DNA of 64,000 bases from Amphiura filiformis (taxonomy: Eukaryota), in the NCBI RefSeq assembly GCF_039555335.1, contig NC_092647.1, forward strand, positions 18,628,946 to 18,692,945, in the 5' to 3' direction. The notes under the pieces were generated by a model. It made no database searches and was not told the DNA's origin. It saw only the letters and a program-made list of their open reading frames with translations. Positions 20,301 to 56,151 of this stretch are shown in pieces; positions within the stretch are counted from its first letter, which is position 1, and each line of letters begins with the position of its first letter. A program made the position numbers and the translations under genes.

Positions 20301-23300
20301 TTGGATCCTGGACAAGAGTAACCCTTTGCCTACAGATTTCAGTAATCGGTACAATAAAGATTACCAAAGGAAACTACAAGGTACAAGTTGATTTTAAAGA
20401 TTCGGTCCAAGTCTATCATTATCAGTCCACAAACAGCTGGTCTGTCAATTTAGCCTTGTTGACCATCATCTTCACCGGGGTTGATGTGGCCAATAACAAC
20501 ACAGTGGCCTGTCTCATACCCCAGACATAATGAGAGAAAATAATAAACATACTGAAATCAACTTTTCAGTCCATATTTTTTATGTCTTCAATCTAATTAA
20601 CTTGATTCAGTTGTCACAAAACAGTCATTGACATCAAGCAAATAATGTCAAGGTAAAGTCCCGGGTATAAAGTAGACTGGTTTTTCAATTTTTTTAGTAA
20701 TCATCACTCCCAGAGCCCCCTGTACCTGGGAAGTTCAAAATGTTTTGGCTTTATCAGCAAAGTCTTGGCTGGAAATTAATGTGAACATCTGTTACTTGGG
20801 GTTGTTTATGGTTTAATTTATAACCAATGGTAATAACAGATTTCATTTAATATGTATAATAAAGAAGCAAAATAACATGGGAAAAAGGAACTTTTATATT
20901 GTTTCCTGCACTTTTTATGATCGTAAATCCTGCTTATATTATTATATATGCTTTTGATGATAAAATACAGGTATATTGTTATGTGCAAACATTTGAAGTA
21001 AATCAGGTGGCACCTAACAGACCCATGATATAAACCATGTTTAATACCAATATTTAATTTCATGACAAAGCTGTTTGGTATGATTCTTAAAACATTTGAA
21101 ACTATTTTTTTACACTTCTTTATCTTTAGCCCAATTTTGTTTCCCAACCAAATTTTACTCTTTCATGCCACTGATGTATTGTAATAGTAATAGTAATAGT
21201 ATACAATACTTGCATATTTGTAATGCAAAATATATTTCTAAGGCAATAAATATAATTTATATAATATAAAATAGGGCTGGACATACATGTAATAGAGAAA
21301 ATTACATGTTCAGGTAAAAATCAAGCAAGTTTGGTAGAAATTTTTGGGTGTGGTCCTTATTGGTGGCAGCATAATAGTTTTATGTATGGTGTAGAGTGTA
21401 ATTCAACAGAGTGCGCGAACTGTACAAAAGAGGGCGGTATGTAATAAAAGTCACTGGAAGCTTGCTTCAACCATGCCAAGAGAAGCAACCACAAGTCATG
21501 TTGAGCTGGCACAGTTTATACATAGAGGGCAGCATTTACTGACAATATCTAGTCACTTACAGCAGCAAATCTGCTGATTTGTTGGCCACGCCTACCCTCC
21601 ATGTTCAACTCATGAGGGCAGCAATCATGGAAATAGAGTGATTTGCAGTTTCTTAAGGCCAATTACAATTGATCCTTAGTTTCCTGTTTCCCTCGCGCGT
21701 CCAAAATCAAGAATGGAAAAATATTTAATTATTTTATTTTTATTTAGGTATTTTCATCTTTTAATTGACTTTTTAATTACTTTTATTTGCTAATATCTGT
21801 TTTTGATCATCTCAACTTTGATTACGAATATAAAACAAGAACATTATAGGGTCCCCTACTAATATTAATGTAAAAAATCAATTATAAAGGTAAAATAATT
21901 AAATCCGTAGTCTTAGTCAAAATGACCAAATGGACTGTTGATAATAGTCACGACCACATTTTCAAAATAAAGAAAGTAATAGATAATTAATCATTAATAG
22001 ATAATTAATAATTAATAATTAAAAGTCACCTCGTCCTTTATTTTCAAACTTGAAACAGGAAACTAAGAATTAATTGTGAAGGGCCTAAACCCTAACTTAC
22101 CCAAAAGCCACAAATAGCCACTACCAGTGCAAGTATTCCATGTGATGCGATTGCGTCATAATGCGAAAACACATATGGGCACGGAAAGCTTGGTCGGTCG
22201 TGGGTTAAAAACCGGACCCAAGAAAATTAAAATTCACTTTATCTTCTTCCTTCATTCCTAAGGACACTTGTAACCAGCCTTTTTGAGGCCCCAGCCATTG
22301 CCCCCTTTGTAAGGACTCTTATTACCATCTCTGAGGCTTCAGTCCTTTGCCCTCTAATTAAGGACCCTTATCACCCGCTTTCAGGCCCCAGCCCCTGCCC
22401 TCTCTGTAAACAGCCCCTGTCCCCTCGGTAATGATACTTGCTACCCCCTATGAGGTATCAGCCCTCAATAGGTACTCTTTGAACCCCAACCTTGCCACCC
22501 TCTTTGAGGCACCAGCCACTGCATCCTCAGTAAGGACTTTTACTACCCTCTTTGAGGCCTCAGCCCTTTGCCCCCTCAGTAAGAACCCTTGTCACCCTCT
22601 TTGAGGCCCAGCCCCTTCAGTAAGGACCACTGCCACCCTCTTTGAGGCCCAGCCCCTGTCCCCTCAATAAGGAACCTTGCCACCCTCTTCGAGGCCTCAA
22701 CCCCCTGCTCCATCAGTAAGAACCCTTGTCACCCTCTTTGAGGCCCAAGCTCCTTCAGTAAGGTCCACTGACACCCTCTCTGAGGCCCAGCCCCTGTCCC
22801 CTCAGTAGGGAACCTTGCCACCCTCTTAGAGGCCTTAACCTCTTTACCCCCCCCCCCAGTTGCAACCCTCTGAGGCCCAACCCCCTTAGTAAGAAACCAT
22901 CATCTCTGAGGCCTCAACCCCTTCTCCATCAGTAAGGACCATTGCCACACTCTTTATGGTTCAAACCCTTGCCCCCTCAGTAAGGACCCTTGTCATGCTT
23001 GTTGAGCCCCAGCCACCCTGTCCCCCTTGGTTATGTAGCCGCTTTGAGGCGCCAGCTACTCAGTAAGGACTCTTACTACAATCTTTGAGGCCTCAACCCT
23101 TTGCCCCCTCAGTAAGAACCCTTGTCACCCTCTTTGAGGCTCATCCCCTTCAGTAAGGACCACTGCCACCCTCTTTGAGGCCCAGCCCCTGTCCCCTCAA
23201 TAAGGAACCCAGCCCCTGTCCCCTCAGTAGGGAACCTTGCCACCCTCTTAGAGGCCTTAACCTCTTTACCCCCCCCCCCTGAGTAAGGGCAGTTGCAACC

Positions 23301-23908
23301 CTCTGAGGCCCAACCCCTTAGTAAGAAACCATCATCTCTGAGGCCTCAACCCCTTCTCCATCAGTAAGGACCATTGCCACACTCTTTTAGGTTCAAACCC
23401 TTGCCCCCTCAGTAAGGACCCTTGTCACACTTGTTGAGCCCCAGCCACCCTGTCGCCCTTGGTTACGTAGCCGCTTTGAGGCGCCAGCCACTCAGTAAGG
23501 ACTCTTACTACAATCTTTGAGGCCTCAACCCTTTGCCCCCCTCAGTAAGAACCCTTGTCACCCTCTTTGAGGCTCATCCCCTGCCCCCTCAGTAAGCAGC
23601 CCAGCCCCCTCAGAAAGGACCATTGCCACCTTCTTTTGGGGCCCTAACCCCTTGCTACTCTCTTGAAGCCCTATCCCCCAACCCCCTCAGAAAAGACCAT
23701 TGCCACCTTGAGGCCTCAACCACCCTTCCTACCCTCTTTAGGGACTCTTGCCACATCCCCCAGTTAAGGACCATTACCACCCTCTTTGAGGCCCAAGCCC
23801 TTACTCCCTCAGTAAGGAACCTTGCCACCCTCTTTGAGGCCTCAACCTACAGCCCCCTCAGTAAGGACTGTAGCCACCCTATTTGAGGCCCCAGCCCCTG
23901 CCCCCTTA

Positions 23909-24151
23909 GGGACCATTCACAAACACTTGTAAAGGGGCCTGATGCAAAATGAAAATTCACATTTTTCAGCTCCCCCCCCCTTTGGCCATGAAAAATGAAC
24001 ATCAATCCCATAGAAAATAGTGTGAACTCATGTTCTCTGAGAAAAATTATGGTGATTTTTTAAAGACCCCCCCTTCAGAGGGACAAACATTTTCAGGGCC
24101 CCACCACTTTTTGCATTAGCCCCCCCCATTACAAGTGTTTGTGAACGGTCC
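23909..24151. mobile_element. PIF/Harbinger-like MITE of 243 bp, inserted into the satellite
   Basis: ~40 bp TIRs (gggaccattcacaaacacttgtaaaggggcctgatgcaaa … tttgcattagccccccccattacaagtgtttgtgaacggtcc). Flanking TTA duplication at 23906-23908 and 24152-24154. The satellite unit resumes in register across the insertion. Confidence 0.65.
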
Positions 24152-26535
24152 TTAGTGGGGAACCTTGCCATCATCTTTAAGGTCCCAGCCCCCTTTACTC
24201 CCTCAGTAAGGACCATTGCCACCATCTTTGAGGCCCCACCCACTCAGTAAAGAACCTTGTCACCCTCTTTGAGGTCTCAACCACTTAGGCCTCTGGAAGG
24301 ACTGATGCCACCTACTTGAGGCCCTAGCTCCTGTCCTCTCAGGAAGGACCCTTGCCTCCCACTTTCTTTGGGGCCCCAGGCCCAATGCCTCTCAATTAGG
24401 ACCCCTGTCACCCTCTTTGAGCCCCAGCAACTCTGCCCCCTGAGTTGTCATCCTCTTTGAGGCCTCATCCCCTGTCCCCTCAGTAAACAGCCCTGAGGTC
24501 TCAACCACTTGAGCCTCTGGACGGACTGATGCCACCTACTTGAGGCCCTAGCTCCAGCCCTCTCAGTAAAGACCTTTGCCTCCCACTTTCTTTGAGGCCC
24601 CAGCCCCAATGCCTCTCATTAAGGACCCCTGTCACCCTCTTTGAGCCCCATCAACCACCCTGCCCTCTCAGTTGTCACCCTCTTTGAGGCCTCATCCCCT
24701 GCCCCCTCAGTAAGCAGCCCCTGCCCCCTCAGTAAGGGCCGGCCATTGCCACCTTCTTTGAGGCCTTGACCCAATCAGTAAGAATCACTGCTACCCTCTT
24801 TGAGGCCCTATGCCCTTGCTCCCTCAGTAAAGATCGCTGCCACCATCTTTGAGGCCATTATCTCCCTTTCCTCTTAGTAGGGACTCTTGCCTCCTTCTTT
24901 GAGGCCGCAGCCACCAAGTTAAGGACAATTGCCACCCTCTTTGAGGCCACAGCCCTTGCTCCTTCACCAAGGCATCAACCTCAACCCCTTGCCCCTCAAT
25001 AAGGATCACTGCCACCCTCTTTGAGGCCCCAGCCCCTGTCCCCTCAGTAAGGATCCTTGCCACTCTCTTTGAGACCCCAGCACCTACCCCTTAGTAAGAA
25101 ACCTTGCCATCATCTTTGAGGCCTCAACCCTCTGCCCCCTCAGAAAAGACCATTATCACTCTCTTTTAGGCCCCAGCCCCTGCCCCCTTAGTAAAGAACC
25201 TTGCCATCATCTTTGAGGCCCAGCCCCTTGCTCACACAGTAAGGAATGTTGCCACCCTCGTTAAGGTCCCATCCCACTCAGTAAGGAACCTTGCCACCTT
25301 CTTCGATGCCCCAACCCCTTGTCTCCTCAATAGGGACCATTGCCACCCTTTTAGAGACCCAGCCCCTTCCCCTTAGTAAGAAACCTTGCCATCATCTTTT
25401 GAGGCCTCAACCTCCTGCACCATCATCAGTAAGGATCATTGCCACCCTCTTTTATGCCCCAGCCCCTTGCACCCTCAATAAGGACAGTTGCCATCCTCTT
25501 TGAGGCCCCAGCCCCTCCCTTCAATAAGGACAATTGCCACCCTCTTTGCCCTTGCTCCCTCAGTAAGGACCCTTGCCACCCTCTTTGAGCCCCAGCCACC
25601 CTGTGTCCTTGGTTAAGTAGCCTTGTCACCCTCTTTGAGGCACCAGTCCCTACCCCCTTGTTAAGGACTCTTATTACCATCTTTGAGGCCTCAATCTTTT
25701 GCCCCCTCAGTGAGGATCCTTATCACCAGCTTTCAGGCACCAGCCCCTGCCTCCTCCATCAGCAGCCCCTGTCCCTTCAGTAAGGACTCTTGCTACCCTC
25801 TGAGGCATCAGCCCTCAGTAGGTACCCTTGCTACCCTCTTTGAACCCCAACCACCCTGCCCATTCAGTTATGAGCCTTGTCACCCTCTTTGAGGCACCAG
25901 CCAATACCCCCTCAGTAAGGACTCTTAATGTTATCCTCTTTGAGGCCAAGCCCTTGTCCCCTCAGTAAGGAACATTGCCACCCTCTTAGAGGTCTCAACC
26001 TCTTTCCCCCCTGAGTAAGGGCAATTGCCACCCTCTTTGAGGTCCAACCCCTCAGTAAGAAATCATCATCTTTAACGTCTCACCCCCTGCTCCATCAGTA
26101 AGGACCATTGCCACTCTCTTTTAGGCCCCAGCCCCTTGCCCCCTCAGTAAGGACCCTTGTCACCCATGTTGAGCCCCAGACCCTCAGTTAGGACTCTTAC
26201 TACAATTTTCGAGGCATCTGCCCTTTGCCCCCTCAGTAAGAACCCCTGTCACCCTCTTTGAGGCTCATCCCCTGCCCCCTCAGTAAGCAACCCCAGCCCC
26301 CTAAGGACCATTGCCACCTTCTTTTGGGGCCCTAACCCCTTGCTACCCTCTTTGAGGCCTCTAACCCTCTGCCCCCTCAGTAAAGACCATTGCCACCTTT
26401 AGGCCTCAACCACCCTTGCCACATCCCTCAGTTAAGGACCATTGCCATCCTCTTTGAGGCCCAAGCCCTTGCTCCCTCAGTAAGGAACCTTGTCAACCTC
26501 TTTGAGGCCTCAACCTACTGCCCCCCTCAGTAAGG

Positions 26536-26619
26536 CTCCCTTCAGAGGAATAAAATTTTTCAGGGCCCGCCCCTTTTTGCATTAGCCCCCCTCCATTACA
26601 AGTGTTTGTGAATACTGCC
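26536..26619. mobile_element. 5'-truncated copy (3' 84 bp) of the same MITE, in the homologous position of the duplicated satellite block
   Basis: It matches 24068-24151 and is followed by the same satellite flank (ttagtgNggaaccttgccatc…). Confidence 0.55.
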
Positions 26620-29600
26620 TTAGTGAGGAACCTTGCCATCTTCATTAAGCCCCCAGCCCCTTTGCTCCCTAAGTAAGGACCATTGCCACCATCTTTGAGA
26701 CCCCACCCACTCAGTAAAGAACCTTGCCACCCTCTTTGAGGTCTCATCCACTTTGAGCCTCTGGAAGGACTGGTGCCACCTACTTGAGGCCCTAGCCCCT
26801 GTCCTCTCAGTAAGGACCTTTGCCTCCCACTTTCTTTGAGGCCCCAGCCCCAATGCCTCTCATTAAGGACCCCTGTCACCCTCTTTGAGCCCAAGCAACT
26901 CTGCCCCTGAGTTGTCACCCTCTTGAGGCCTCATCCCCTGCCCCTCAGTAAGCAGCCCTGCAGTGCCCCCTCAGTAAGGACCATTGAGACCTTGACCCCC
27001 TCAGTAAGGATCACTGCTGCCCTCTTTGAGGCCCTATCCTCTTGCTCCCTCAGTAAAGATCATTGCCACCTTGAGGTCTCAACCACCATTGCTCTCAGCC
27101 ACCCTAGTAACGACCCGTGTCACTCTCTTTGAGCCTCAGCCACCCTAGTAAGGACCCTTGTCACTCTCTTTGAGCCTCAGCCACCCTAGTAAGGACCCTT
27201 GTCACTCTCTTTGAGCCTCAGCCACCCTAGTAAGGACCCTTGTCAGCCACCACCCTAGTAAGGACCCTTGTCAATGAGGACCATTCCTACCCTCAAGGTC
27301 CCAGCCCGACCCCTCAGTAAGGACCATTAACACCCTCTTTGAAACTCCACCCGCTCAGTAAGGACCATTACTACCCTCTTTGAAGCTCCCACCCCCTCAG
27401 TAAGGACTATTACCAACATCTTTGAGGTCTCAGTCCCATGCCCCTTCAGTAAGGACCCCTGCCACCCTTTATGAGGCCAAGTACCCTGCCCCCTAAGGAC
27501 CCTTGCCACAATCTTTGAGGCCTCAGCCCCCTAAGAAAGGAGTTACCCTCTTTGAGGCCCCTACCCCACAATCCCCCAGTAAGGACCCTGGTCACCCTTT
27601 TTGAGGCCTAGTCCCCATCACCTCAATGAGGACCCTTCCTACCCACTGAGGCCTCATCACCTGTCCCTCAGAAAGGACTATTACCACCCTCTTTGAGGCC
27701 TCGGTTTCATTCTCCTTCAGTAAGGACCTGTGCCACAATCTTTGAGGAATCTGCCCCCTCAGTAAGGACTCTTGTTACCCCTCAAAGAGGCTCCTACCCC
27801 TGACCCCCAGTAAGGACCCTTGCTACCCTTTTTGACTCCTCAGACCCCTGCCCACTCAGTAAAGACACTTGCTACCCTATTTGAGGCCCAGCCCCCTTAG
27901 TAAAAATCTTTGCTACCCTCCTTGAGGCTTCACACCATTTGTCCTCAGTAAGGACCATTGCCACCCTCTTTGAGGAATCTGCCCCCAGTAAGGACCCTTG
28001 CTACCCTTTTGACTCCTCAGACCCCTGCCCACTCAGTAAAGACACTTGCTACCCTATTTGAGGCCCAGCCCCCTTAGTAAAAATCTTTGCTACCCTCCTT
28101 GAGGCTTCACACCATTTGTCCTCAGTAAGGACCATTGCCACCCTCTTTGAGGAATCTGCCCCCAGTAAGGACCCTTGCTACCCTTTTGACTCCTCAGACC
28201 CCTGCCCACTCAGTAAAGACACTTGCTACCCTATTTGAGGCCCCAGCCCCCTTAGTAAAAATCTTTGCTAACCTCCTTGAGGCTTCACACCCTTTGTCCT
28301 CAGTAATGGCCATTGCCACCCTTTTTGAGGAATCTGCCCCCAGTAAGGATTTTTGTTACACTCCTAGAGGCTCCTACCCCCTGACCCCCAGTAAGGACCC
28401 TTGTTACCCTCTCAGACTCCTCAGACCCCTGCCTCTCAGTAAAGACTCTTGCTACCCTATTTGAGGCCCAGCCCCTGCCCCCTTAGTAAAAATCTTTGCT
28501 ACCCTCTTTGAGGCTTCACACCCTTTGTCCTCAGTAAGGGCCATTGCCACCCTTTTTGAGGAATGTGACCCATCAATAAGGATTTTTGTTACCCTCCTAG
28601 AGGCTCCTACCCCTGACCCCCAGTAAGGACCCTTGCTACCCTCTTTGACTCCTCAGACCCCTGCCCATCAGTAAATACTCTTGCTCCCCTATTTGAGGCC
28701 CAGCCCCTGCCCCCCTTAGTAAATATCTTTGCTACCCTCTTTGAGGCTTCACACCCTTTGTCCTCAGTAAGGGCCATTGCCACCCTTTTTGAGGAATCTG
28801 ACCCCTCAGTAAGGATTTTTGTTACACTCCTAAAGGCTCCTACTCCATGACCCCCAGTAAGGACCCTTCCTACCCTCTTTGACTCCTCAGACCCCTGCCT
28901 CTCGGTAAAGACTCTTGATCCCCTATTTGAGGCCCAGCCCCTGTCCCCTTAGTAAAGATCTTTGCTACCCTCTTTGAGGCTTCACACCCTTTGTCCTCAG
29001 TAAGGGCCATTGCCACCCTTTTTGAGGAATCTGACCCATCAGTAAGGATTTTTGTTACCCTCCTAGAGGCTCCTACCCCCTGGCCCCCAGTAAGGACCCT
29101 TGTTACCCTCTTTGACTCCTCAGACACCTGCCCCTCAGTAAAGACTCTTGCTACCCTATGTGAGGCTCCAGCCCCTGCCCTCTTAGTAAAGATCTTTGCT
29201 ACCCTCTTTGCGGCTTCACACCCTTTGCCCTCAGTAAGGACCATTGCCACCCTCTTCGAGGCCTCAACCCCCTGTCCCCTTAGTAAGGATCTTTGCAACC
29301 ATCTTTGAGGCCTCAGGCCCATCTCAGCCTCTCGCCTACTTAGCAAGGACCCTTGTAACCCTCTCAGGCCCCAACCCCTCATTTAATACACTTAGAACTC
29401 CCTTAGCACACCAGCCCCCTCAATTCACAGTAAGGACTGTTACCAGCCTCTTTTGAGGCCCCTACTACCTACTTTGAGGACTCAGCCCATCAGCAAGGAC
29501 CCTGGCTACCTGATTTGCTGCCTCAGCTCCCTCTTCCCATGAATTGGCAGTCTCTTTACAGGGATATACCATTCAGAATCCACACACCCCTCCCCCGACA

Positions 29601-29761
29601 CAGTCATTACAGCCGTTTATTATGTCCATCTTTATCAAGGGTACTCTAAATTTGATATTACGTAACATGTAGTCTATCTGCAATCTACCTTTTGAGGGGT
29701 GTTTATTTACTGGCAAAGATCTTGGACAGGGACCATAGGTGGTTTGAACGAGGCATCAAGG

Positions 29762-31446
29762 AGAATCAATCTTGCTTCTTGTAAAGGAAGTTGCAAGAAC
29801 AAATGGATTACACAGTGTGAGTGTGAGAATCAATCTTGATTCTTGTAAAGGAAGTTTGCAAGAACTAATGGGTTACAGTGCGAGTGTGAGAATCAATCTT
29901 GATTCTTGTAAAGGAAGTTTGCAAGAACTAATGAATTACACAGCGTGAGTGTGAGAATCAATCTTGATTCTTGTAAAGGAAGTTGCAAGAACTAATGGGT
30001 TACAGTGTGAGTGTGAGAATCAATCTTGATTCTTGTAAAGGAAGTTTGCAAGAACTAATGGATTACAGTGTTAGTGTGAGAATCAATCTTGATTCTTGTA
30101 AAGGAAGTTGCAAGACCTAATGGATTACACAACATGAGTGTGAGAATCAATCTCGATTCTTGTAAAGGAAGTTTGCAAAAACTAATGGATTACACAGTGT
30201 GAGAACCAATCTTGATTCTTGTAAAGGAAGTTGCCAGAACTAATGGATTACACAGCAAGAGTGTGAGAATTAATCTTGATTCTTGTAAAGGAAGTTTGCA
30301 AGAACTAATGGATTACACAGTGTGAGAACCAATCTTGATTCTTGTAAAGGAAGTTGCCAGAACTAATGGATTACACAGCAAGAGTGTGAGAATTAATCTT
30401 GATTCTTGTAAAGGAAGTTTGCAAGAACTAATTGATTACACAGTGTGAGAACCAATCTTGATTCTTGTAAAGGAAGTTGCCAGAACTAATGGATTACACA
30501 GCAAGAGTGTGAGAATTAATCTTGATTCTTGTAAAGGAAGTTTACAAGAACTAATTGATTACAGTGTGAGAACCAATCTTGATTCTTGTAAAGGAAGTTT
30601 GCAAGAATTAATGGATTACACAGTGTGAGTGTGAAAATCAATCTTGATTCTTGTAAAGGAAGTTTGCAAGAACTAATGGATTACACAGTGTGAGAACCAA
30701 TCTTGATTCTTGTAAAGGAAGTTGCCAGAACTAATGGATTACACAGCAAGAGTGTGAGAATTAATCTTGATTCTTGTAAAGGAAGTTTGCAAGAACTAAT
30801 TGATTACAGTGTGAGAACCAATCTTGATTCTTGTAAAGGAAGTTTGCAAGAACTAATGGGTTACAGTGTGAGTGTGAGAATCAATCTTGATTCTTGTAAA
30901 GGAAGTGGCAAGAACTAATGGATTGCACAACGTGAGTGTGAGAATCAATCTTGATTCTTGTAAAGGAAGTTGCAAGAACTAATGGGTTACAGTGTGAGTG
31001 TGAGAATCAATCTTGATTCTTGTAAAGGAAGTTTGCAAGAACTAATGAATTACACAGCGTGAGTGTGAGAATCAATCTTTATTCTTGTAAAGGAAGTTGC
31101 AAGAACTAATGGGTTACAGTGTGAGTGTGAGAATCAATCTTGATTCTTGTAAAGGAAGTTTGCAAGAACTAATGAATTACACAGCGTGAGTGTGAGAATC
31201 AATCTTGATTCTTGTAAAGGAAGTTGCAAGAACTAATGGGTTACAGTGTGAGTGTGAGAATTAATCTTGATTCTTGTAAAGGAATTTTTCAAGAACTAAT
31301 TGATTACACAGTGTGAGTGTAAGAACCAATCTTGATTCTTGTAAAGGAAGTTGCAAGACCTAATGGATTACACAACGTGAGTGTGAGAATCAATCTCGAT
31401 TCTTGTAAAGAAAGTTTGCAAAAACTAATGGATTACACAGTGCGAG
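29762..31446. repeat. Minisatellite of 59-60 bp unit (gagaatcaatcttgattcttgtaaaggaagtt(t)gcaagaactaatggattaca + a variable 8-12 bp tail), ~28 copies
   Basis: Regular tandem array. Each unit contains the 16-bp palindrome gaatcaatcttgattc. A single related unit recurs at 63935-63965. Confidence 0.95.
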
Positions 31447-31796
31447 TTAAAATTGACATTGGGTATTTTTAAAATGGAAATTTGGCACAAAAAACGAGGA
31501 AAACAATAGTATTGACTAAGTTGAAGCCCCATTCAAATACATGGAGCTAATTTCTCCACATTTTTCATGTAAAATGACCTATTTTGTCTTTATTATACAG
31601 CTTTCACAGCTTTTACAGCTCAACCACTTGCAGGCTATGTTAGCACATCTATGCTTATAACAAAGGTGCAATTTTTATGATTTTCTGAATGAGTTAATCA
31701 CTGAATGGGCCTTTAAAAAATGCCAATTTTTGTTCTTTTCATTAACCAATAAATGCCAGAGGCACACTATTTGCCCTCTACGTGCGACAAACCAAA

Positions 31797-32432
31797 ATGG
31801 CGGATTTACCCTAGCATTACACACAGGGCAATTTTGAGTTGGTACTCTTTGGGTATAATCTTTATGGCGGATTTACCATAGCATTACACACTGGGCAATA
31901 TTGAGTCGGTACTCTTTGGGTATTATCTCTATGGTGGATTTACCATAGCATTACACACTGGGCAATATTGAGTCGGTACTCTTTGGGTATAATCTTTATG
32001 GTGGATTTACCATAGCTTTACACACTGGACAATATTGAGTCGGTACTCTGGGGGTATAATCTTTATGGTGGATTTACCATAGCATTACACACTGGGCAAT
32101 ATTGAGTCGGTACTCTTTGGGTATAATCTTTATGGTGGATTTACCATAGCATTACACACTGGGCAATATTGAGTCGGTACTCTTTGGGTATAATCTTAGC
32201 GACTCAATATTGCCCAGTGTATAAATCTTTATGGTGGATTTACCATAGTGTTACACACTGGGCAATATTGAGTAGGTTCTCTTTGGGTATAATCTCTATA
32301 ATGGTGGATTTACCATAGCATTGTACACACTGGGCATTTTGAGTTGGTACTCTTTGGGTATAATCTCTATGGTGGATTTACCATAGCATTACAAAGCGCA
32401 ATTTTGAGTTGGTACTCTTTGGGTATAATCCC
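31797..32432. repeat. Tandem repeat of 66-67 bp unit (ctttatggtggatttaccatagcattacacactgggcaatattgagtcggtactctttgggtataat), ~9.5 copies
   Basis: Regular period between successive tttatggtgg motifs. One unit carries a 23-bp local inversion at 32197-32222. Confidence 0.9.
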
Positions 32433-34297: not shown

Positions 34298-34700
34298 TCT
34301 CAAAAGTAAGAGTGACCTTCACTGGTAAATTATGCCATGATTATGCACAATCAGAATAGGATTGGGTCATCAAGGTCATGCTTACATGTGAGTTTACATG
34401 CAAATCTTGTTCACACTGGCCTTACATTTGAATGTAGCTTGTTACAATATCTTACATGTAAAATTGTCACTTGTAACTTGCATGTAGCTACATGCGAGTG
34501 CGTTTAGACGGGTACTACATGCAAGTTTACATTCAAATGTAGTTACAAGCGACTTTACAAGCAATCGTCTGAACAAGCCTAATATAGTGAACTTTTACAG
34601 CAAGAAGTATAATGGTATTTCAGTGAAGTAGTAAAGTTCAGTCTGACAGGCATTTCTAACAAAATCATGCTTAAGGTGGTTATGGAGGCATTATAAAAGT

Positions 34701-35312
34701 GCTCTAAACATGTTTTAAACAGATTAATTGAGTAGAGCAAAGTACACTGATCAATATACCTTGTGTTTGGAGTCAATCGGACATACGGTTTTTCAAAATA
34801 TATCAATTTATATTTTCTTTGTATCTTATTGTTTTTTTCAATTATCAATCAAGTTAATGAGCTAAAATGACTGGAGAAGCTCATTTACATATAATTTTTT
34901 GCCAATATTTTGCTAAAAAATCCATGCATAAATGTTCAGGGTACTTTTATTTTGCATAATTTTATGCCCTGAAACTTAGTCAAAGTGTTTCTAATATGTT
35001 CCTAATTAGTATTATATTAGTGAAACTTTGACCAAGTCATTTGCATATTTGCATAATTAATTAGCATTTATGCAACATTTATGCTCATTGATTATTAGAA
35101 ATTAATATTGGCAAAAATTACATATTAATGAGCCTTTCCAGTCCTTTTGGCTCATTAACTATATTGATTATTGACAAAAACAATAGGATACAAAGAAAAT
35201 ATAAATTGATGTATTTTGGAAACCGTATGTCCGATTGACTCCAAACAAAAGGTATATTGATCAGTGTACTTTACCCTACTCAATTAATCTGTTTAAAACA
35301 AGCTCAAAGCAT
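34701..35312. repeat. Large near-perfect inverted repeat. Arms are 34701-34885 and 35139-35312 at ~90% identity, with a ~250 bp spacer that is itself palindromic at its ends.
   Basis: The reverse complement of the right arm aligns base-for-base with the left arm. Confidence 0.8.
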
Positions 35313-35370
35313 TTTCTAATTTCTAGAAAATGCATCCAATACCACCTTAAGGATGAGGATGTGGTGACAA

Positions 35371-35692
35371 CTCTCTAGTCCGAAGGTTCTCTAGTCAGAA
35401 GGCTCCTTAGACCGAAGGTTTGGTAGTCTGAACACGTAATTTACCATTCGCTAGTCCGAAAATCGGGTTCTCTAGTCTGAAGGTTCGCTACTCTGAATAA
35501 TAAATAAGATTCTGTAGTCCGAATATAGAATAAGGCTCACTAACCCTAACTCTAACACTAACCCTAACCCCAACCCTTATTCTATATTCGGACTAGAGAA
35601 CCTTCGGATTAGCGAACTTAATTTGATTTTTGGACTAGCGACCCTTTCAGACTAGAGAGCCTTCGGACTAGCGACCCTTCGGACTAGAGAGA
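35371..35692. mobile_element. Foldback element. Its arms are ~7 tandem 17-18 bp subrepeats (ctagtccgaaggttctc), inverted around a central (CCCTAA)n-like tract at 35536-35575.
   Basis: The left arm ctctagtccgaaggttctctagtcagaagg… is mirrored by the right arm …ccttcggactagagaaccttcggattagcg. The centre reads ctaaccctaactctaacactaaccctaaccccaaccc. Confidence 0.75.
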
Positions 35693-36117
35693 AGTCACGG
35701 AGGATGTACAACACAAATACCAATGACGTCACTCATTCACATAACATGTCAGGTACAAAAATGAATCCTGTTATTTATATTCAATTTTCTCACATTTTAC
35801 GCTTAAATAGCCATTAGAATTCTTACGATTTTTGAGAAAAATGTTACAAAATTTCACCCTATGACGGTACAAATTGATATATTCCTACCAACTTTCAAAG
35901 TCTATTTTATTGCAGAATTAAATGCTAAACTTTTTAGTTTTTCACACTAACGAACCCATACTTTGTAGTAACTTTGGACAGAATCCCTGAATTAATTAAA
36001 GCTCACAATATGCTTTGCTAATACATGTAAGTTGATTATCCTTAAAGCCATAATGTAGGATTTCCATCAAATTTAAGTTTTGTTATTCTTTACTCAAAAT
36101 GCTGAAATAATATAAGT

Positions 36118-36259: not shown

Positions 36260-36790
36260 ATACTAAACTGTCAGGAAAGGTTTCTGCCCATTTAGAGCCA
36301 GAATAATAAGGTAAAGTGACAGCAACTACACCAACTATTTTGGCCGTTTCACATGGAGTTCTAAGGGGGACTTGATGCCTGAATATGACATTATGCCAAA
36401 CTTTCACTGTTGACCCCATCTAGCTGATTCCATTTAGATATAATCTGGGACATGTGTAAAATTACAAATATGCCAAAAATCAGGTTTGAAAAAAATGAAC
36501 TAATTTCATATTATAAGATCATACATTATGGCTTTAAATAGTGCAAAGGTGCTAGTACTATAAAGTTAATGTTCCCATCATATTACCCAGTTGACCTAAG
36601 AAAGTATAAAAATCTATCAAATCTACCTACTTACAAAAATATAGTGAAGAATTTAGTACTATTGCATCTACAGAAGAAATAACTGGCTAATTTCAGTAAG
36701 TATAAGAGTTCAGTTTGCATGAGTGCTTGCATAGTATCATCAAATTTTCTATCATCAACAATTATCAGGCTGGCATCTTAGCCATAATGA

Positions 36791-36972
36791 GCTATTCCAG
36801 TTGAAATCCACACAATCTATGGAAGACATGACCTTAATCTTCCGCACAAGGAGTGCAAATTTCAAATGGGGCTACTGAATAGGTACTTCCACTTAAAATC
36901 TACACTCCCTCTGTGGGAGATTAAGGTTATGCCTTCCATACAGGGTGTATGGATTTCAACTGGAATAGCCCA
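36791..36972. mobile_element. Hairpin-unit MITE family H, dimer copy (attccagttgaaatccatacaccc…ggaagacatgaccttaatcttcc… / …gggtgtatggatttcaactggaat)
   Basis: A ~180 bp near-palindrome made of two ~90 bp units, each unit itself a hairpin. Confidence 0.75.
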
Positions 36973-37160
36973 TTGATCTCATTTCTTATGTCAAAGTTCA
37001 CCAAACCTCCATTAACTATTGTAGCTCAAAATTTGACCTCAAGTCATAGAGTATGAGTTTGTGTACCCGAGAAAATCATTCTATAAATGTACAAGCATAT
37101 TGTGTTCATAGAAATGTATTGTGACAGATGAACATGAAGAATACTGCACACTGGCAGAAT

Positions 37161-37440
37161 GGGCTATTCCATTTAAAATCCACACTACCCCTGTGGAAGA
37201 TTTTGGAAATATGTTCCACAAAGGGAATATGAATTTCAAATGGAATGAACACATTAGCAGCTCCGTTTGAAACTCACACTCCCTCAAGGGAAGATTCAGG
37301 TTGAATCTTTCTTAGAGGGTGCATGGAATTCAAATGGATCTGCCTAATGCACTCATTTCATTTGAAATACATACTCCCCCTGTGGGAGATATTTCCAAAA
37401 TCTTCCACAGGGGGAGTGTGGATTTTAAATGGAATAGTCC
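37161..37440. mobile_element. Family H, trimer copy (three ~95 bp hairpin units)
   Basis: Three successive units of tccatttRaaatccacac-ccctgtggaagat-loop-atcttccacagggg-gtgtggatttYaaatgga. The same trimer architecture occurs at 43821-44088 and 63403-63694. Confidence 0.7.
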
Positions 37441-40624: not shown

Positions 40625-40864
40625 CATGGAATGATATTCCATTAATGTTAAGTTCTTAATTGATAAGATTAGATGTTTAGTTGTAAATGTGATGTCACAC
40701 ATGTACAAAATCTAATCCCATCTAATGTCTTAACAAATAAAACGCATGAGTTCAAATGGATTAGTTTAACTCAACATGATTAGTCATGGTGGTTCAAAAT
40801 ATGTGTACATAAAGACAATACAACTAAACAAATTAGTAAGTAATTCATATAATTCTTATAATTG

Positions 40865-41044
40865 GTTATTCCAGTTGAAATCCATACACCCTATGGAAAA
40901 CATGACCTTAATCTCAAACAGGGGGTGTATATTTCAAATGGAGTCACTCGTTTAGGTAACTCCATTTGAAATTCACACTCCATCTGTGGAACATAAGGAT
41001 ATATCTTCCGTAAGGGGGGTTTATGGATTCCAACCAGAATAGCC
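40865..41044. mobile_element. Family H dimer copy
   Basis: Same architecture and termini as 36791-36972. Confidence 0.7.
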
Positions 41045-41663
41045 CAATAATTATGTTCCTACTAATGGCAGTACTGGTTTAGTTAATGAATAAAATTTCA
41101 CTAATCCAAATTCATTACACACAATAGGGTCATCTGACTCAGTTAGTTAAAACCCTAATCATCTTATTATTTCAACACCAACAACAGTTCTCATATTATA
41201 TTATATTTCAATTTTAAATCAGAGACAATTCAAAGTCCTATATTCTGGCCTACATACCCTATAAAAGACCCCATTTACAAAATTCAAACCACTTGGCACG
41301 TACGTGGTGATCGCTATCAAAATTACACAAATATAAGGCCATTAAATGGTTACCAATGTACATAAAACAAGATACCGGAAATATTTCATTACAATTACGT
41401 GGAATATTGACCCACTTTGGAGCCTAATTTTTTAAGCTGTAGATCATTTTTAAACCAAACTAAAATAGTATCATCTCTCCTCTATTTTCAGCTTTGTGCT
41501 AAATATACAGTTCATATTTTACAATTTAGAAGTATGTGATGGCTCAGCAGCAAAGAGACGTATTTCCGTACAAGTGCATAAGTGAATTCACCATACATGT
41601 GTAGTTCATGCTTATCATAGGTAATCATACACAAAGCAACTAATAAAAAAAGCTCAGTGATTT

Positions 41664-42339: not shown

Positions 42340-42478
42340 AAACAAGTGGCCAAGTGGATAAGGCGCTGGTCTCGTAAACCAGAGGTCCTGGGTTCAATTC
42401 CCGGGCCGGATCACTTTTCCTATTTCCTCCTTTAATCATTGCTCGATGGCGAAACTGATAAAATTGCATCATAATTTT
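42340..42478 (+). mobile_element. tRNA(Thr-like)-derived SINE copy on the plus strand
   Basis: It has a CGT anticodon-loop region and a GGTTCAATTCC T-arm, but no pairable acceptor stem. Its tail is identical to that of the minus-strand copy. The two copies lie head-to-head 130 bp apart. Confidence 0.55.
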
Positions 42479-43443
42479 AGCAACAATCACAGACTTGGAG
42501 CTAAGAAGCACACACCCTATAGAATACATACTGTAGATTCAACTCCCCAAGTTCTCAGATAACCATGACAATAAAACAGTTAGTTCCTTGCCCAGGTGAA
42601 TATCAAGTTAGCACAAGTATTTTACGAGAACAAACAGAGACTGCACAGGGCTCGAACTTGCATCCAGAGATGCCACTTGCTTGTTGAAAAAAAATCAGGA
42701 ATTTGCGAAGCGTATCCACTCATTCATTGCCAAAAATAATCCTGAATGTTTGGCTAAAAATGGCGAAATTTAGGAATTCCTGATAATCGGGAAAAGTGGC
42801 ATCTTTAACGGTAAATTTTGCGACACTTCGAATCATGTGCATATGCCTCAACTTTGCAATACGGCAGTCCTCCAGTTGCCCCAGCTACTACTTGGGGCAA
42901 ATCTAGGTTATTATGCAAACGACACCTTTTCGACGAAGGTCGTGATAATCACAGAACCTACAAAAACTCAGTGTTCACTTGACTGATTAGTGGAGATAAG
43001 TCTTTCTGCTGCAGAGCCATCAAAACTCAAGTCGAAGTACCTACTAATTATTGGTTATTAATGTATTTATTCATGGTAAACAAAATGAACCAACAATATA
43101 TTTTATTCCCTACATCAGTTTTGATTCCCAAGCGATTACAAACATGGTGCATTATATTTTAGTTTTGGATATCGTGTATCAAAATATTTTTTCCTAAATA
43201 ATATTGGAGTACTATAATATTTGTAAAATACAATTTATTACAAAAAGAGATTATTTGTTCATGATTCGTTTAGTACACAACTTTAGGCACAGTACATAAT
43301 ATTTGTAGAAATTCTATTCAATGTATTCATTTACAATTTGAAAAAAAAAAGCAAATAAGAAAAAATACTAAATCCAATAATATATTTAGTTATATTCAGC
43401 ACTTTGTTTACAATTAACCTGCAAGTACATGAGACAGTACGAT

Positions 43444-43612
43444 GGGCTGTTCCAGTTGAAATCCGTAACCCCTATGGAAGACATCACCTTAATATGAATT
43501 TCAAATGCAATCGTCCATTTAGGTACCCCCCATTTGAAATTCACACTCCCTGTGTGGGAGACTAAGGTCGTAACTTCCATAGGGGGTGTATGGATTTCAA
43601 ATGTAATAGACC
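43444..43612. mobile_element. Family H dimer copy
   Basis: Termini gggctgttccagttgaaatccgtaacccc … gggggtgtatggatttcaaatgtaat. Confidence 0.7.
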
Positions 43613-43820
43613 AGTACAAAATATTCTAGGCTTGGGACCAGAACTCGCTTTGTTCCCAAAAAAAGTTTGAAAATGTTAATCACTCTGGAAAAATCAAGAA
43701 ATTTTCAGAAAAATGTATTTTTCCAGTTCTTTTTGAGTAAAAATTTTGAAAAATTGAACATGGCTACTTTAGACACAGTAAGTGTATCCAAGCATAAGCT
43801 TCATAATTAGTTACAAATAG

Positions 43821-44088
43821 AGCTAATCCACTTAAAGAACACACTCCCCATGTGGAAGATTTTGGAAATATTTTCCACAGTGGGAGTATAAATTACCACA
43901 TTAACTAATTCTATTTGAAACTCACCCTCCCTCTGTGGAAGATCAACATTTAAATGTTCTCAGTGGGTATATGAAATTGAAATGGAGCTGCCTATAATGT
44001 TCATTCCATTTGAAATTCATACTCCCCCTGTGGAAGATATTTCCTAAATCTTCCACAGCTGGAGTATGGATTTTAAATGGAATAGCCC
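43821..44088. mobile_element. Family H trimer copy
   Basis: Collinear with 37161-37440. Confidence 0.7.
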
Positions 44089-46039: not shown

Positions 46040-46126
46040 ATAAACTTACCTGCATTTCCTTCATCTGATTATCCATATAGAGTTGACCTGAGCTTGCAGG
46101 GGATCTGATCAGGTCTCCTGCTGCTG
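46040..46126 (-). CDS. Tandem-duplicated exon copy a (QGRPAAGDLIRSPASSGQLYMDNQMKEMQ), 87 nt, phase 0-0
   Basis: On the minus strand: acceptor cccccag|caaggg, donor gcag|GTAAGT. It has a single open frame. It differs from copy b by a 24-nt in-frame deletion. Confidence 0.45.
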
Positions 46127-46181
46127 GTCTCCCTTGCTGGGGGCTGGATCATAAGAAGGGAGTTTAACCCTAACCCTGAGG

Positions 46182-46292
46182 ACAAACTTACCTGCATTTC
46201 CTTCATCTGATTATTCATATAGAGTTGATTGTCTACATCCATGAAGAATTGACCTGAGCCTGTAGGGGATCCGAATGGGACACCTTCTGCTG
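46182..46292 (-). CDS. Tandem-duplicated exon copy b (QGRPAEGVPFGSPTGSGQFFMDVDNQLYMNNQMKEMQ), 111 nt, phase 0-0
   Basis: Acceptor …ccgtcag|caagg, donor aatgcag|GTAAGT. Only one of its three frames is open. Confidence 0.5.
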
Positions 46293-46357
46293 GTCTTCCT
46301 TGCTGACGGCTGGATCATAAGAAGGGAGTTTGACCCTAACCATGATGACAAACTTAC

Positions 46358-46464
46358 CTGCATTTCCTTCATCTGATTATCCATATAGAGTTGATTGTCT
46401 ACATCCATGGAGAATTGACCTGAGCCTGTTGGGGATCTGAACGGGTCACCTTCTGCCTCCCTTG
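46358..46464 (-). CDS. Tandem-duplicated exon copy c (…AEGDPFRSPTGSGQFSMDVDNQLYMDNQMKEMQ). It has a 4-nt deletion near the 5' end, so an alternative acceptor 8 nt downstream (ggag|gca) is needed to keep phase 0.
   Basis: The same donor CAG|GTAAGT. It has a unique open frame encoding the conserved peptide. The acceptor position is uncertain, so this may be a decaying copy. Confidence 0.4.
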
Positions 46465-46519
46465 CTGGGGGCTGGATCATAAGAAGGGAGTTTGACCCTT
46501 ACCCTGGCGATTAACTTAC

Positions 46520-46633
46520 CTGCATTTCCTTCATCTGATTATCCATATAGAGTTGATTGTCTACATCCATGGAGAATTGACCTGAGCCTGTTGGGGATCC
46601 GAACGGGTCACCTGCTGCTGCGGCTCTCCCCTG
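46520..46633 (-). CDS. Tandem-duplicated exon copy d (QGRAAAAGDPFGSPTGSGQFSMDVDNQLYMDNQMKEMQ), 114 nt, phase 0-0
   Basis: Acceptor cagcccccag|cagggg, donor aatgcag|GTAAGT. Single open frame. The intron separating it from copy c is only 55 nt. Confidence 0.5.
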
Positions 46634-47015
46634 CTGGGGGCTGGTTCCTGAGAAGGGGGCCTGCCCAAAAGGGTCGCTTGCAGCTCCACCCGACCCTGTT
46701 TAAAGAAATTTAAAGGCATAGTTGTGAACCTTTGTTTAAGTGATAACAATCAAAAATGAGTGACTTATTAAACAAATGAACATCCATTTTAGAACTCTGA
46801 TAAAATCAGAGACAAGCACAATCAGGCATGAGACTGCACTTTCCTAAAAAAACAAAAAAAACTGAAAATGCGCGTGAAATTGGGCAAAAAGTACCAAAAA
46901 CAGGCTGAAATTAAATAAAGTTGCGGAAATTTTGACTATAAAAAAAACTGAATTCAGTTTTTAAACTGAAAATTCTCATGCCTGCACAATTTTGACCTTT
47001 GCCGTTTTATCTTAA

Positions 47016-48514: not shown

Positions 48515-49290
48515 ATAAGTTTCATATCCACATGAGGTTTTAGTAATTTGACCACAGATGACCCCTGAGTGACCTTGGATGACCCCAAAATGACATTCCA
48601 AAATTTGGCTTGAAATGTTGACTGTACCCACCAAGTTTCATGCCCATGCGAGTTTTTAGTAACTTAACCTCAGATGACCCCTGGGTGACCTCGGATGACC
48701 CCGAAATGACCTTCCAAAAATTTGACTCTAAATGTTGACTGTACCCAGAAAGTTTCATGCCCATACAACAGTTTTTAGTAATTTGACCTCAGATGACCCC
48801 TTGGTGACCTCAGATGACCCCAAAATAACCGTCTGAAAATTTGACTCTAAATGTTAAGTGTACCCACCAAGTTTCATGCCCATACAAGTTTTTAGTAATT
48901 TGACCTCAGGTGACCCCTTGGTGACCTTGGATGACCCCGAAATGACCGTCCGATAATTTGACTCTAAATGTTGACTGTACCCACCAAGTTTCATGCCCAT
49001 ACGAAGTTTTTAGTAATTTGACCTCAGATGACCCCTTGGTGACCTTGGATGACCCCGAAATTACCTTCCGAAACTTTGACTCATAATGTTAAGTGTATCC
49101 ATCAAGTTTCATGCTCATACGAGTTTTTAGTAATTTGACCTCGGATGACCCCTAAGTGACCTCGGATGACCCCAAAATGGCCGTCAGAAAATTTGACTCT
49201 AAATGTTAACTGTACCCACCAAGTTTCATGCCCATACGACAGTTTTTAGTAATTTGACCTTAGATGACCCCTGGATGACCTCGAAAGTGA
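48515..49290. repeat. Satellite of 117-118 bp unit, ~6.6 copies (…gtttttagtaatttgacctcagatgaccccttggtgacctNggatgaccccgaaatgacc…caagtttcatgcccatac…)
   Basis: Regular period between successive tagtaatttgacc motifs. Confidence 0.9.
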
Positions 49291-52884: not shown

Positions 52885-53270
52885 GGGAGGGCGAGTTAGC
52901 GCAGCGGTAGTTCCCTCGCTTTGCACCACTGAGGTCCCGGGTTCAAGCCCCGGCGCGGCCCAAGGACTCATGTGCACTTGGTTTATCCCGATTCAATGCT
53001 CGCTCTCGCAGGTTTTCTCCGGGATCTCAGGTTTCCTCCTGTATCGCAAAAAATCGGTGATTAGTTGTTTGGTTATCAAAACTTCCTTCACCCAATGGAA
53101 TTTGGGGAGCTGCACAGATAATTGGTGGATGTTACAATCTAAATGCGGATAGGTGTGCGCCGCTCGGCAGCAACCTAGTTGATGCGATCTGATTGTGATG
53201 ATTCACCATTGCAGCGAAATTACAGCGCTTTGAGTTCTCTAAGATCTGGAGAAAGGCGCTTTATAAATCC
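52885..53270 (+). mobile_element. tRNA-derived SINE, copy B, the same family as 372-770
   Basis: Collinear alignment with copy A, including the tRNA-like head gcgcagcggtag…ccgggttcaagcccc. Confidence 0.65.
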
Positions 53271-55835: not shown

Positions 55836-55842
55836 CAAATTG

Positions 55843-56018
55843 GCCTATTCCAGTTGAAATCCACATACCCCATATGGAAGACATGTCCTTAATCTCTCAC
55901 ACAGGGAGTGTGAATTTCAAATGGAGCCACACAACTCCTTTGAAACGTACATCCCATGTGTGGAAGATTAAGGTAATGTCTTCCATAGGGGGTGTATGAA
56001 TTTCAATTGCATTAGCCC
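55843..56018. mobile_element. Family H dimer copy
   Basis: cctattccagttgaaatccacatacccc … gggggtgtatgaatttcaattgcattagccc. Confidence 0.7.
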
Positions 56019-56151
56019 AATGTACAAAATGTAAAGTTTGAATGCCTCAAAGTTGTTTTTTGCCTAGAAAAAGTATCAATATCATTCACCATTTTGTGCA
56101 ATTCCTTTTCTCCAATAAAGGCACCAGATGACATATTTGGTTAGTACCTCC

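Follow-up and report, generated by a model that had tools for sequence, protein, structure and literature searches.

A probable Foldback-type Mutator MITE with a telomere-like core and its relatives in marine invertebrates

Introduction

How does a short inverted-repeat element come to carry a telomere-like tract at its very centre, and does such a tract travel with the element or merely mark an accident at one site? The question is raised by a locus in a 64-kb stretch of Amphiura filiformis DNA (the window, which here always means the whole stretch analysed). An earlier note, made from the letters of this stretch, had described a foldback with a telomere-like centre there, and this basic description holds: two inverted arrays are present around a C-rich hexamer tract. 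The same note had considered the centre either as an excision break healed by telomerase or as a captured interstitial telomeric sequence. We address the locus through its boundaries, its relatives in other hosts, and the transposase with which its arms are associated.

Results

A 337-bp element bounded by target-site duplications

Window positions 35363-35699 hold a 337-bp hairpin-forming element with a perfect 8-bp target-site duplication, GAGGATGT, on both sides, a match that has a chance of about 1.5e-5 at these fixed positions. The duplications place the boundaries somewhat outside the span of 35371-35692 that had been assigned to the element by inspection, and the boundary at 35363 is further supported because the GGTGAC terminus found there is common to several of the relatives described below. 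The parts of the element are as follows:

35355-35362, no strand: left target-site duplication GAGGATGT, identical to 35700-35707
35363-35371, plus strand: left terminal motif GGTGACAAC, with the GGTGAC terminus common to L009, L018, L032, and L054
35372-35535, plus strand: left arm of about 8 tandem 16-bp units TTCTCTAGTCCGAAGG (TRF period 16; inverted-repeat pairs I4-I11)
35536-35574, plus strand: loop, a 4-nt junction CTCA and then degenerate (CTAACC)n, the C-strand of TTAGGG repeats (TRF, hairpin fold, innermost pair I7)
35575-35690, minus strand: right arm of about 6 inverted units of the 16-bp repeat (motif matches; 106 matching positions when globally aligned to the left arm)
35691-35699, minus strand: right terminal motif GAAGTCACG, reverse complement CGTGACTTC, a mirror image of the GGTGAC terminus on the left apart from one terminal mismatch
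35700-35707, no strand: right target-site duplication GAGGATGT, identical to the left copy

The element therefore opens with GGTGAC... and closes with ...GTCAC(G), and between these termini its arms repeat a 16-bp unit of consensus TTCTCTAGTCCGAAGG. TRF detects this period at 35372-35420, 35466-35497, 35587-35617, and 35632-35687, which agrees with the inverted arrays of tandem subrepeats seen at first but not with the 17-18 bp then given for them; likewise, the estimate of about 7 subrepeats gives way to about 8 on the left, several of them degenerate, and about 6 on the right. In the left arm it is the inner units that are degenerate, and two AT-rich interruptions are present. Searched with up to 2 mismatches, the 12-mer CTAGTCCGAAGG has 10 matches in the element, at 35375, 35391, 35407, 35451, and 35472 in the left arm and at 35585, 35601, 35644, 35660, and 35676 on the minus strand in the right arm, and a single match elsewhere in the 64 kb; shuffled sequences have a mean of 1.8 matches, and 0 of 100 shuffles reach 11. 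An inverted-repeat search pairs 35364-35416 with 35646-35698 as the outer arms (83% complementary) and 35506-35535 with 35575-35604 as the innermost pair (93% complementary), with exactly 39 nt between the latter two. The minimum-free-energy structure predicted for 35363-35699 in single-stranded form is a single long hairpin with a dG of -86.1 kcal/mol (shuffles: -33.9 +/- 4.05 kcal/mol; z = -12.9), and its loop, which stays unpaired, consists of the telomere-like tract.

The core tract itself was delimited by TRF at 35540-35577 with a period of 6, 6.3 copies, an 84% match, and the consensus CTAACC. This hexamer is a permutation of CCCTAA, of which just two perfect stretches of about two units are left, and its period of 6 makes the core TTAGGG-type rather than TTAGG-type. 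The centre is thus of the CCCTAA kind that had been proposed, though as a 39-nt loop of about six degenerate hexamers instead of a 40-bp segment. Read on the minus strand, the inner arm end ...GAATAAGG is followed by the G-strand GTTGGGGTTAGGGTTAGTGTTAGAGTTAGGGTTAG, then by 4 nt (TGAG), and then by the other arm, which begins at the mirror position CCTTATTC; no letter separates the arm end ...AATAAGG from the G-strand, whose start falls exactly on the centre of symmetry. Since both target-site duplications lie outside the core, the core has travelled with the element and cannot be a scar left when this element excised, an explanation that we rejected and with which the idea of a healed excision break falls as well.

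The window copy looks old and degenerate, given outer arms that are only about 83% complementary (inner 93%) and a tract match of 84%. It is a single copy, with none further found within the 64-kb window, and it appears as a non-coding insertion with no sign of local function. The DNA around it is non-coding and rich in repeats, and the copy sits on the edge of another palindromic element. This neighbour, which had been noticed before as a second large inverted repeat at 34701-35312, is real and extends over 34665-35356, with 79% self-complementarity across about 720 columns; its sequence has no relation to that of the foldback, which lies at the right edge of this repeat. Pfam, applied to most window ORFs of at least 70 aa beyond a satellite block (about 7,300 of 8,841 residues, leaving aside the ORFs of a ~190-bp palindromic repeat family and a few after ~21.5 kb), found no match. 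As for RNA genes, the window has one tRNA-like match (Rfam) and one tRNA-Cys (ARAGORN).

Relatives found by arm sequence

Because the window has one copy, we scanned metagenome contigs for relatives, using as query two consecutive arm cores, CTAGTCNGAAGGNNNNCTAGTCNGAAGG, without any telomeric letters. This arm-only scan yielded 103 metagenome loci, and the arm pattern had 0 matches in viral contigs. Two loci of 70% GC (L003 and L076) are probably chance matches in bacterial DNA and were ignored. The remaining loci are animal DNA, for example L012 with a 1804-aa cadherin-repeat ORF or L090 with a fukutin-related protein, and most of them come from one host-associated dataset, Ga0126335 (IMG 3300012887), whose hosts we suspect to be a group of related symbiont-bearing marine invertebrates. 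The fukutin-related ORF has about 50% identity to proteins of named lophotrochozoans and other animals and 73-78% to many metagenome proteins. All evidence at the level of families is drawn from hosts other than the window's genome.

At 43 loci, a forward arm is followed by a reverse arm no more than 600 bp away. Members of the dominant family consist, in this order, of the duplication, GAGAAGGGTTCAC-TAGTCCGAAGG units, about 70 nt of unique DNA, (CCCTAA)n, units ending in ...GGGATGTTTCC, and again the duplication. The Ga0126335 family is dispersed, with multiple copies that have duplications of their own. Where both ends are present (32 copies), the duplication is an exact 8-mer in 14, reads as 9 bp in 4, and is an imperfect 8-mer in most others; the modal length is 8, as in the window. 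A true 9-bp duplication was considered and rejected, since exact 9-mers in 4 of 18 cases are what chance extension of an 8-bp duplication gives.

A FLYWCH+MULE transposase as partner

The largest family offered a link to a transposase through its 1.35-kb member L060, which contains a MULE fragment (Pfam PF10551, E = 1.5e-14) whose homologues are proteins of about 475 aa that combine a FLYWCH zinc finger with a MULE domain. Such FLYWCH+MULE homologues were found in molluscs (the gastropods Babylonia areolata and Nucella lapillus and the mussel Mytilus edulis) as well as in the nemerteans Tubulanus and Lineus, the octocoral Paramuricea clavata, the hemichordate Saccoglossus, and the fish Coilia; the intact Babylonia ORF of 478 aa matches both FLYWCH (5.6e-8) and MULE (1e-15). 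Inverted arrays of the 16-bp unit flank five of these genes, on both sides in four (L104 Babylonia, L106, L107 Mytilus, L108 Tubulanus) and as one array in L109 Paramuricea. Flanking direct repeats are exact in three of the autonomous copies, with 8 bp in Tubulanus L108 (GTAACACA) and 9 bp in Babylonia and in L106 ((G)AACTAAGT). Across these loci, the unit consensus varies at its outer positions and TAGTCCG, its core, stays the same all the way from octocoral to window, as one would expect of a transposase binding site, for which the unit is a candidate. The transposase has 26-28% identity to aphid MULE proteins and appears Phantom-like by domain architecture only. The clade found in molluscs, nemerteans, octocoral, hemichordate, and fish may represent a branch that is separate or undescribed, and the lineage as a whole seems under-described.

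These data bear directly on the class of the window element. As the arm unit of the window is the unit around FLYWCH+MULE genes in five other genomes, we assign it to the Mutator superfamily, and because its GGTGAC terminus matches that of L009, L018, L032, and L054, we file it as a non-autonomous Foldback-type MULE. Most foldback elements have been assigned to Mutator, with duplications of 8-10 bp (PMC4079207). What is expected of a Foldback-type MULE is found here, that is, subrepeated arms around a 39-nt middle, an 8-bp duplication inside the 8-11 bp range, and, in other genomes (L104, L106-L109), an autonomous FLYWCH+MULE partner; the first naming of the element as Foldback-type is borne out by its subrepeated inverted arms, its duplication, and the arm unit that it has in common with the FLYWCH+MULE loci. 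Taken together, our main reading, which we hold at a probability of roughly 0.7, is that 35363-35699 is an old non-autonomous Foldback-type Mutator MITE, that its core transposes with it, and that such a core is a recurrent hallmark of short derivatives. For its mobility, transposase would be supplied in trans and would presumably recognise the 16-bp units (core TAGTCCG) of both arms, with binding by the FLYWCH domain as our assumption; it would then cut at the GGTGAC termini, and staggered integration over 8 bp would produce the GAGGATGT duplication.

Other identities fare much worse against this partner. A hAT MITE should have an 8-bp duplication, short inverted repeats that end in the hAT consensus, and a hAT transposase as partner. 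The length of the duplication, classic for hAT, is indeed matched here, but the termini read GGTGAC and all coding relatives found are MULEs, so that we rejected a hAT MITE. Galileo has a 7-bp duplication where ours is 8 bp. What makes this element of the P superfamily worth considering are its foldback-like arms with repeated binding sites, which passages of PMC3688188 and PMC3573991 describe as THAP-binding sites in long arms, together with a P-like transposase; the partner found here is FLYWCH+MULE rather than P-like, and a Galileo-type element was rejected on this ground too. Against either reading stand the arm unit around FLYWCH+MULE genes in five genomes, the lack of a hAT or P transposase in any related locus, and a duplication that fits the ranges reported for MULEs (8-11 bp) and for Phantom (8-10 bp; PMC6446971). 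With a MULE as partner transposase the hAT and P-like readings fail, and we regard them as very improbable. Breakage-fusion events can give inverted repeats flanking telomeric DNA, but a non-transposon relic of telomere-associated rearrangement (an inverted subtelomeric duplication around a healed end) is effectively refuted by the exact 8-bp duplication and by dozens of relatives with unrelated flanks and a duplication of their own, and it also sits badly with a tract in a single orientation without head-to-head arrays and with arm units linked to a transposase.

The telomere-like core across the lineage

To describe the core in relatives, we counted as a telomere-like match any 12-mer with up to 1 mismatch and examined 46 short foldbacks, namely the window copy and 45 found among the metagenome loci. 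Such a 12-mer lies between the arms in 40 of the 46. Its density amounts to 115 matches in 5.6 kb of inner DNA as compared with 89 in the remaining 541 kb, an enrichment of about 125-fold. The same polarisation is seen around individual arm clusters: of 141, 86 have a 12-mer no more than 200 bp away on their inner side, and 1 has one on its outer side. The tract was found in 8 of 24 sample sets and in the window, and it is present in each of the four terminus clades seen. A search of the genome for other copies with the same arms had been suggested at the outset, with unrelated centres as the outcome that would mark the core as a chance feature; the relatives, which belong to other hosts, came out the opposite way, and the outer-side control of 1/141 speaks against chance as well.

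The inner DNA around the tract is a different matter. Once telomere runs are masked, the inner DNA of at least six structural types (Ga0126335; L004; the L022/L079/L099 group; L054, with L043 and L065 added by eye; L024; and the window) has no detectable similarity from one type to another. The tract has therefore either arisen repeatedly or is the sole inner feature that was retained. Copies within a family count as one event, so that independent support comes from about six types and not from 40 elements. The telomere-like 12-mer was absent from the five autonomous copies, and no telomere-like tract was found in the non-autonomous members of 1.2-1.7 kb (L060, L062, L067, and L071), which ties the tract to MITE-sized derivatives. 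Within the Ga0126335 family, the number of repeats ranges from about 1 to 14 units. A uniform rule of polarity was tried and rejected because two arrangements are seen: the G-strand runs toward the arm, not away from it, in L024, L054, L043, and L065, and the L022 group has a CCCTAAA-like tract in mid-loop. Judged by these sequence comparisons, a telomere-repeat core recurs among the short members of a FLYWCH-MULE lineage that is widespread in marine invertebrates.

Possible origins of the tract

Its position within the duplications means that telomerase, if it was the maker of the tract, worked on an internal break of the progenitor. Telomerase-primed filler at such a break is the origin that we favour, at somewhat short of even odds. 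A progenitor would have been broken or internally deleted, either on the inner edge of one arm or in the centre of the palindrome; a 3' end ...AAGG would have been extended by telomerase with G + TTAGGG repeats; and the extended end would have been rejoined to the other side, leaving a short hairpin whose loop is not palindromic. The number of repeats could later have changed by replication slippage, and decay would have degraded the window copy. Several junctions are suggestive in this regard. About 42 of 51 B-ends of the largest family have a G-strand that opens precisely at ...CCGAAGG. The MITE of this family and the longer L060 agree as far as the final unit of one arm, ...GTCCGAAGG, and agree again from ...TTGAAAACAAATACGAGACAAG on the other side, so that the breakpoint of the deletion falls on the very arm edge at which the G-strand opens; the filler specific to the MITE starts there with GTTAGGGTTAGGG, and L060 has no tract at this edge. 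A 3' end in ...AGG followed by G + TTAGGG is the register expected of telomerase, and both register and microhomology in the window and in the Ga0126335 family fit telomerase-primed filler. There is a precedent in mammals, whose short interstitial telomeric tracts are attributed, in passages of PMC7215372, to insertion during double-strand-break repair.

The second explanation offered in the earlier note, capture, has a host interstitial or subtelomeric tract taken up between the arms and then amplified, which could have happened by Pack-MULE-style transduplication or by two arms around an interstitial tract mobilising together. MULEs are known to acquire host fragments (according to passages of PMC6446971), and foldback middle domains have been characterised as being of "variable composition" (PMC4079207). 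Several types look as capture would have it: the tract is embedded in unrelated unique DNA with its G-strand toward the arm (L024, L054, L043, L065, and L022), and in the largest family it is followed by about 45 nt of AT-rich, non-telomeric DNA. Types with opposite polarity, with a mid-loop tract or with CCCTAAA-like repeats fit capture at least as well as they fit telomerase filler. Nevertheless, capture would require at least six types to have taken up one kind of sequence independently while no other class of host sequence recurs, the tract in the two best-resolved cases is in telomerase register and starts exactly where an arm ends in 3' ...AAGG, and no donor locus is known. We consider capture possible but doubtful.

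A selected module is compatible with either origin and concerns persistence: short foldbacks with TTAGGG repeats would amplify or persist better, possibly because a non-palindromic loop prone to form a G-quadruplex or i-motif stabilises a palindrome that is otherwise perfect or because it recruits proteins that bind telomere repeats. It is true that the tract is the sole inner feature common to at least six otherwise unrelated types, that it forms the unpaired loop of the predicted hairpin, and that the most abundant family in the data bears it. On the other hand, a palindrome would be stabilised by whatever spacer it had, the tract of the window copy decays (84% match) in the way expected of neutral DNA, and the sample consists of a few host-associated metagenomes. 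Selection of this kind strikes us as unlikely.

It is also conceivable, if quite improbable, that the tract is an in-situ microsatellite, a hexamer array grown by slippage from a proto-repeat of the element itself whose likeness to telomeres is coincidental. The raw material can be pointed out, with AAGGGTT at arm-unit junctions and at one terminus and GGGTTAC-like strings in units and termini, and a spread from about 1 to 14 units among copies of one family indicates that slippage is active. A lone AGGGTT is a poor substrate for slippage, however, and autonomous copies with the same units never grew arrays. The window units read GAAGGTTCT or GAAGGGTCG and hold no tandem proto-repeat, and the L022 type has a 7-mer CCCTAAA-like variant amid unique DNA.

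If telomerase-primed filler was indeed the origin, one may go further and suppose that it is the systematic route by which mini-foldbacks are born, each birth yielding a stable MITE with a loop that then amplifies, which would turn these MITEs into a major mobile source of short interstitial TTAGGG tracts in several phyla of marine invertebrates. We see this extension as speculative and rather doubtful. In such a scenario, the tract might be kept by selection, perhaps as a stabiliser of the loop or as a module for telomere proteins or G-quadruplexes.

Discussion

The element and its relatives define a widespread FLYWCH-MULE foldback lineage by a deeply conserved 16-bp unit with the core TAGTCCG, and arms of this foldback type explain why metagenome contigs often break off within such elements. 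Foldbacks that bear TTAGGG repeats could furthermore confound scans of assemblies for telomere motifs. If the pattern of cores holds, it joins the birth of MITEs, the action of germ-line telomerase at internal breaks, and the origin of interstitial telomeric sequences in invertebrates, and a mobile TTAGGG hairpin element could spread sites that are potentially fragile or telomere-seeding. Should filler by telomerase be the systematic birth route, this would amount to a class of transposons that bring along a telomere seed of their own in a fragile palindrome.

Comparison with known systems

Telomeric repeats are part of the DNA transposons Tel-1 and TBE1 of ciliates, where they are found at the termini; here, the tract is central and the termini read GGTGAC...GTCAC(G). 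Helentron-type elements are asymmetric and are not known to make an 8-bp duplication. We rejected a Helentron/DINE-1-like MITE as a model for the window element because its arms are symmetric and subrepeated, its 8-bp duplication is exact, and its partner is a MULE. The bivalve MITEs DTC84 and pearl and the DINE-1/Helentron derivatives nonetheless resemble it in being small, non-autonomous elements of invertebrates and in having an internal microsatellite or tandem-repeat module, and passages of PMC3879986 and PMC4067079 describe them as Helentron-type, rolling-circle elements. The short telomeric tracts of mammals share with ours an internal TTAGGG array that starts at a 3' end with telomere-like microhomology, but they are unique and non-mobile, as orthologous empty loci demonstrate, whereas here the tract is copied inside a transposon (passages of PMC7215372).

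Among classical foldbacks, Drosophila FB, Tetris, and a sea-urchin foldback likewise have long subrepeated arms, a variable middle, and a strong potential to form hairpins (PMC4079207). Compared by description, they differ in the lengths and sequences of their subrepeats, and the window copy is just 337 bp long; a telomeric-repeat middle domain is absent from the features given for them in the same review (PMC4079207). A telomeric core had been called unusual for such an element, and this is true of the foldback literature that was searched, in which we found no published description of telomeric repeats inside foldback, MULE, or MITE elements (annotation in Repbase or Dfam is possible), yet among short members of the present lineage such a core is the rule.

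Phantom MULEs (Marquez & Pritham 2010) likewise combine an N-terminal FLYWCH with a MULE domain, have 8-10 bp duplications and variable, often long inverted repeats, and are widely distributed in animals, as set out in passages of PMC3169594 and PMC6446971. The hosts of Phantom listed by Dupeyron et al. are Platyhelminthes, crustaceans, other arthropods, tunicates, and an ichnovirus, with no molluscs, nemerteans, or cnidarians among the host phyla; the same authors distinguish separate "MULE-Mollusca" groups, for which no inverted repeats or duplications are reported (PMC6446971).

A detailed parallel is offered by Tm1 of root-knot nematodes (Gross & Williamson 2011), which was placed in Phantom on the basis of an element with terminal motifs, tandem units, FLYWCH+MULE, and MITE derivatives (PMC3169594). 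Its arms are composites of tandem units in varying number as well, though of 14 bp rather than 16 bp, with short terminal motifs outside the units, a FLYWCH+MULE protein of about 480-500 aa, and MITE-like derivatives (PMC3169594). It differs by a duplication of mostly 9 bp in place of 8 and by unrelated unit sequences, and the main text of the Tm1 paper has 0 occurrences of a word beginning with "telomer" (PMC3169594). Its hosts are nematodes, against TTAGGG-type marine invertebrates in our case. Even the core has a counterpart, since one non-autonomous class of Tm1 carries a central host-like motif, which is a histone hairpin there and telomere-like here (PMC3169594).

Repeats around the foldback

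Directly to the left of the foldback (window 35363-35699) lies a 692-bp element that is a nearly full palindrome (window 34665-35356), with 79% self-complementarity across ~720 columns; its arms pair over stretches of 110 nt (87%), 96 nt (92%), and 28 nt (86%). This palindrome is without subrepeats, has no sequence relationship to the foldback, and is present as one copy only within the 64-kb window. TTAA is found just inside both of its ends, and its last two bases are overlapped by the foldback's target-site duplication. A smaller palindromic, MITE-like family of ~190 bp is represented by at least 9 copies in the 64-kb window, with pairwise identities of 70-78% among copies:

36786-36974, copy 1
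37158-37338, copy 2
40858-41049, copy 3
43442-43613, copy 4
43974-44088, copy 5
55841-56022, copy 6
57818-58003, copy 7
60469-60651, copy 8
61946-62138, copy 9

Small hairpin-forming repeats are very abundant in the host genome.

The window also holds a degenerate, C-rich minisatellite of ~7 kb (~22490-29320), whose ~48-bp period is accompanied by higher-order ones of 88-282 bp. It differs from its surroundings in GC content (~0.53 vs 0.36) and has a GC skew of ~-0.37. The longest ORF of the window, 170 aa long and on the minus strand, is nothing more than an in-frame reading of this minisatellite. Four further tandem arrays and two tRNA matches were found:

29761-31447, tandem array, 127/65 bp x 13-14
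31797-32430, tandem array, 67 bp x 6 plus 3
46071-46657, tandem array, 166 bp x 3.5, with the string CCCTAACCCTGA inside its unit
48517-49283, tandem array, 117/235 bp x 6.5
42347-42404, partial tRNA-like match (Rfam, model positions 8-63)
52889-52961, tRNA-Cys(GCA) gene (ARAGORN)

The partial match is separate from the tRNA-Cys gene and is possibly a tRNA-derived repeat.

Autonomous copies and possibly joined ends

An apparently intact autonomous element of ~4.1 kb was found in Babylonia areolata (L104 9873-14033, from CM085441.1), flanked by the direct repeat GTCTCTTTC and encoding a 478-aa FLYWCH+MULE ORF, with 3 vs 7 arm units on its two sides. (CAGA)n and (CA)n microsatellites lie directly interior to both arms. 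Downstream of the transposase comes a minisatellite ORF that is acidic and rich in Asp/Glu. At L106, another transposase-bearing locus, the coding region is reversed relative to the two end motifs, which can be told apart; the middle part looks as though it had turned around between the inverted arms.

The metagenome locus L001 (~127-360, from JAAUYG010170560.1) carries an outward-facing pair of arm arrays whose terminus-like motifs meet head-to-head, with a short palindrome (...GTGTAACCCTGGCCAGGGTTACAC...) at the meeting point. The structure resembles two element ends that have been joined, which could be an end-to-end junction or a pair of inverted insertions lying next to each other. The terminus motif, GGGTTAC, is itself similar to a telomere unit.

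Contig breaks and arm length

Numerous metagenome contigs terminate within the telomere-like tract or inside an arm (L007, L019, L025, L027, L028, L030, L033, L045, L051, L059, L082, and others), which suggests that elements combining a hairpin with telomere repeats break short-read assemblies. One-sided long arrays of the 16-bp unit, with 12-25 or more units, occur at L066, L009, and L088 as well as at L109 from Paramuricea, and arm length is therefore highly variable. Such 16-bp units may seed satellite-like arrays, a possible likeness to the foldback element Tetris, for which seeding of this kind has been reported.
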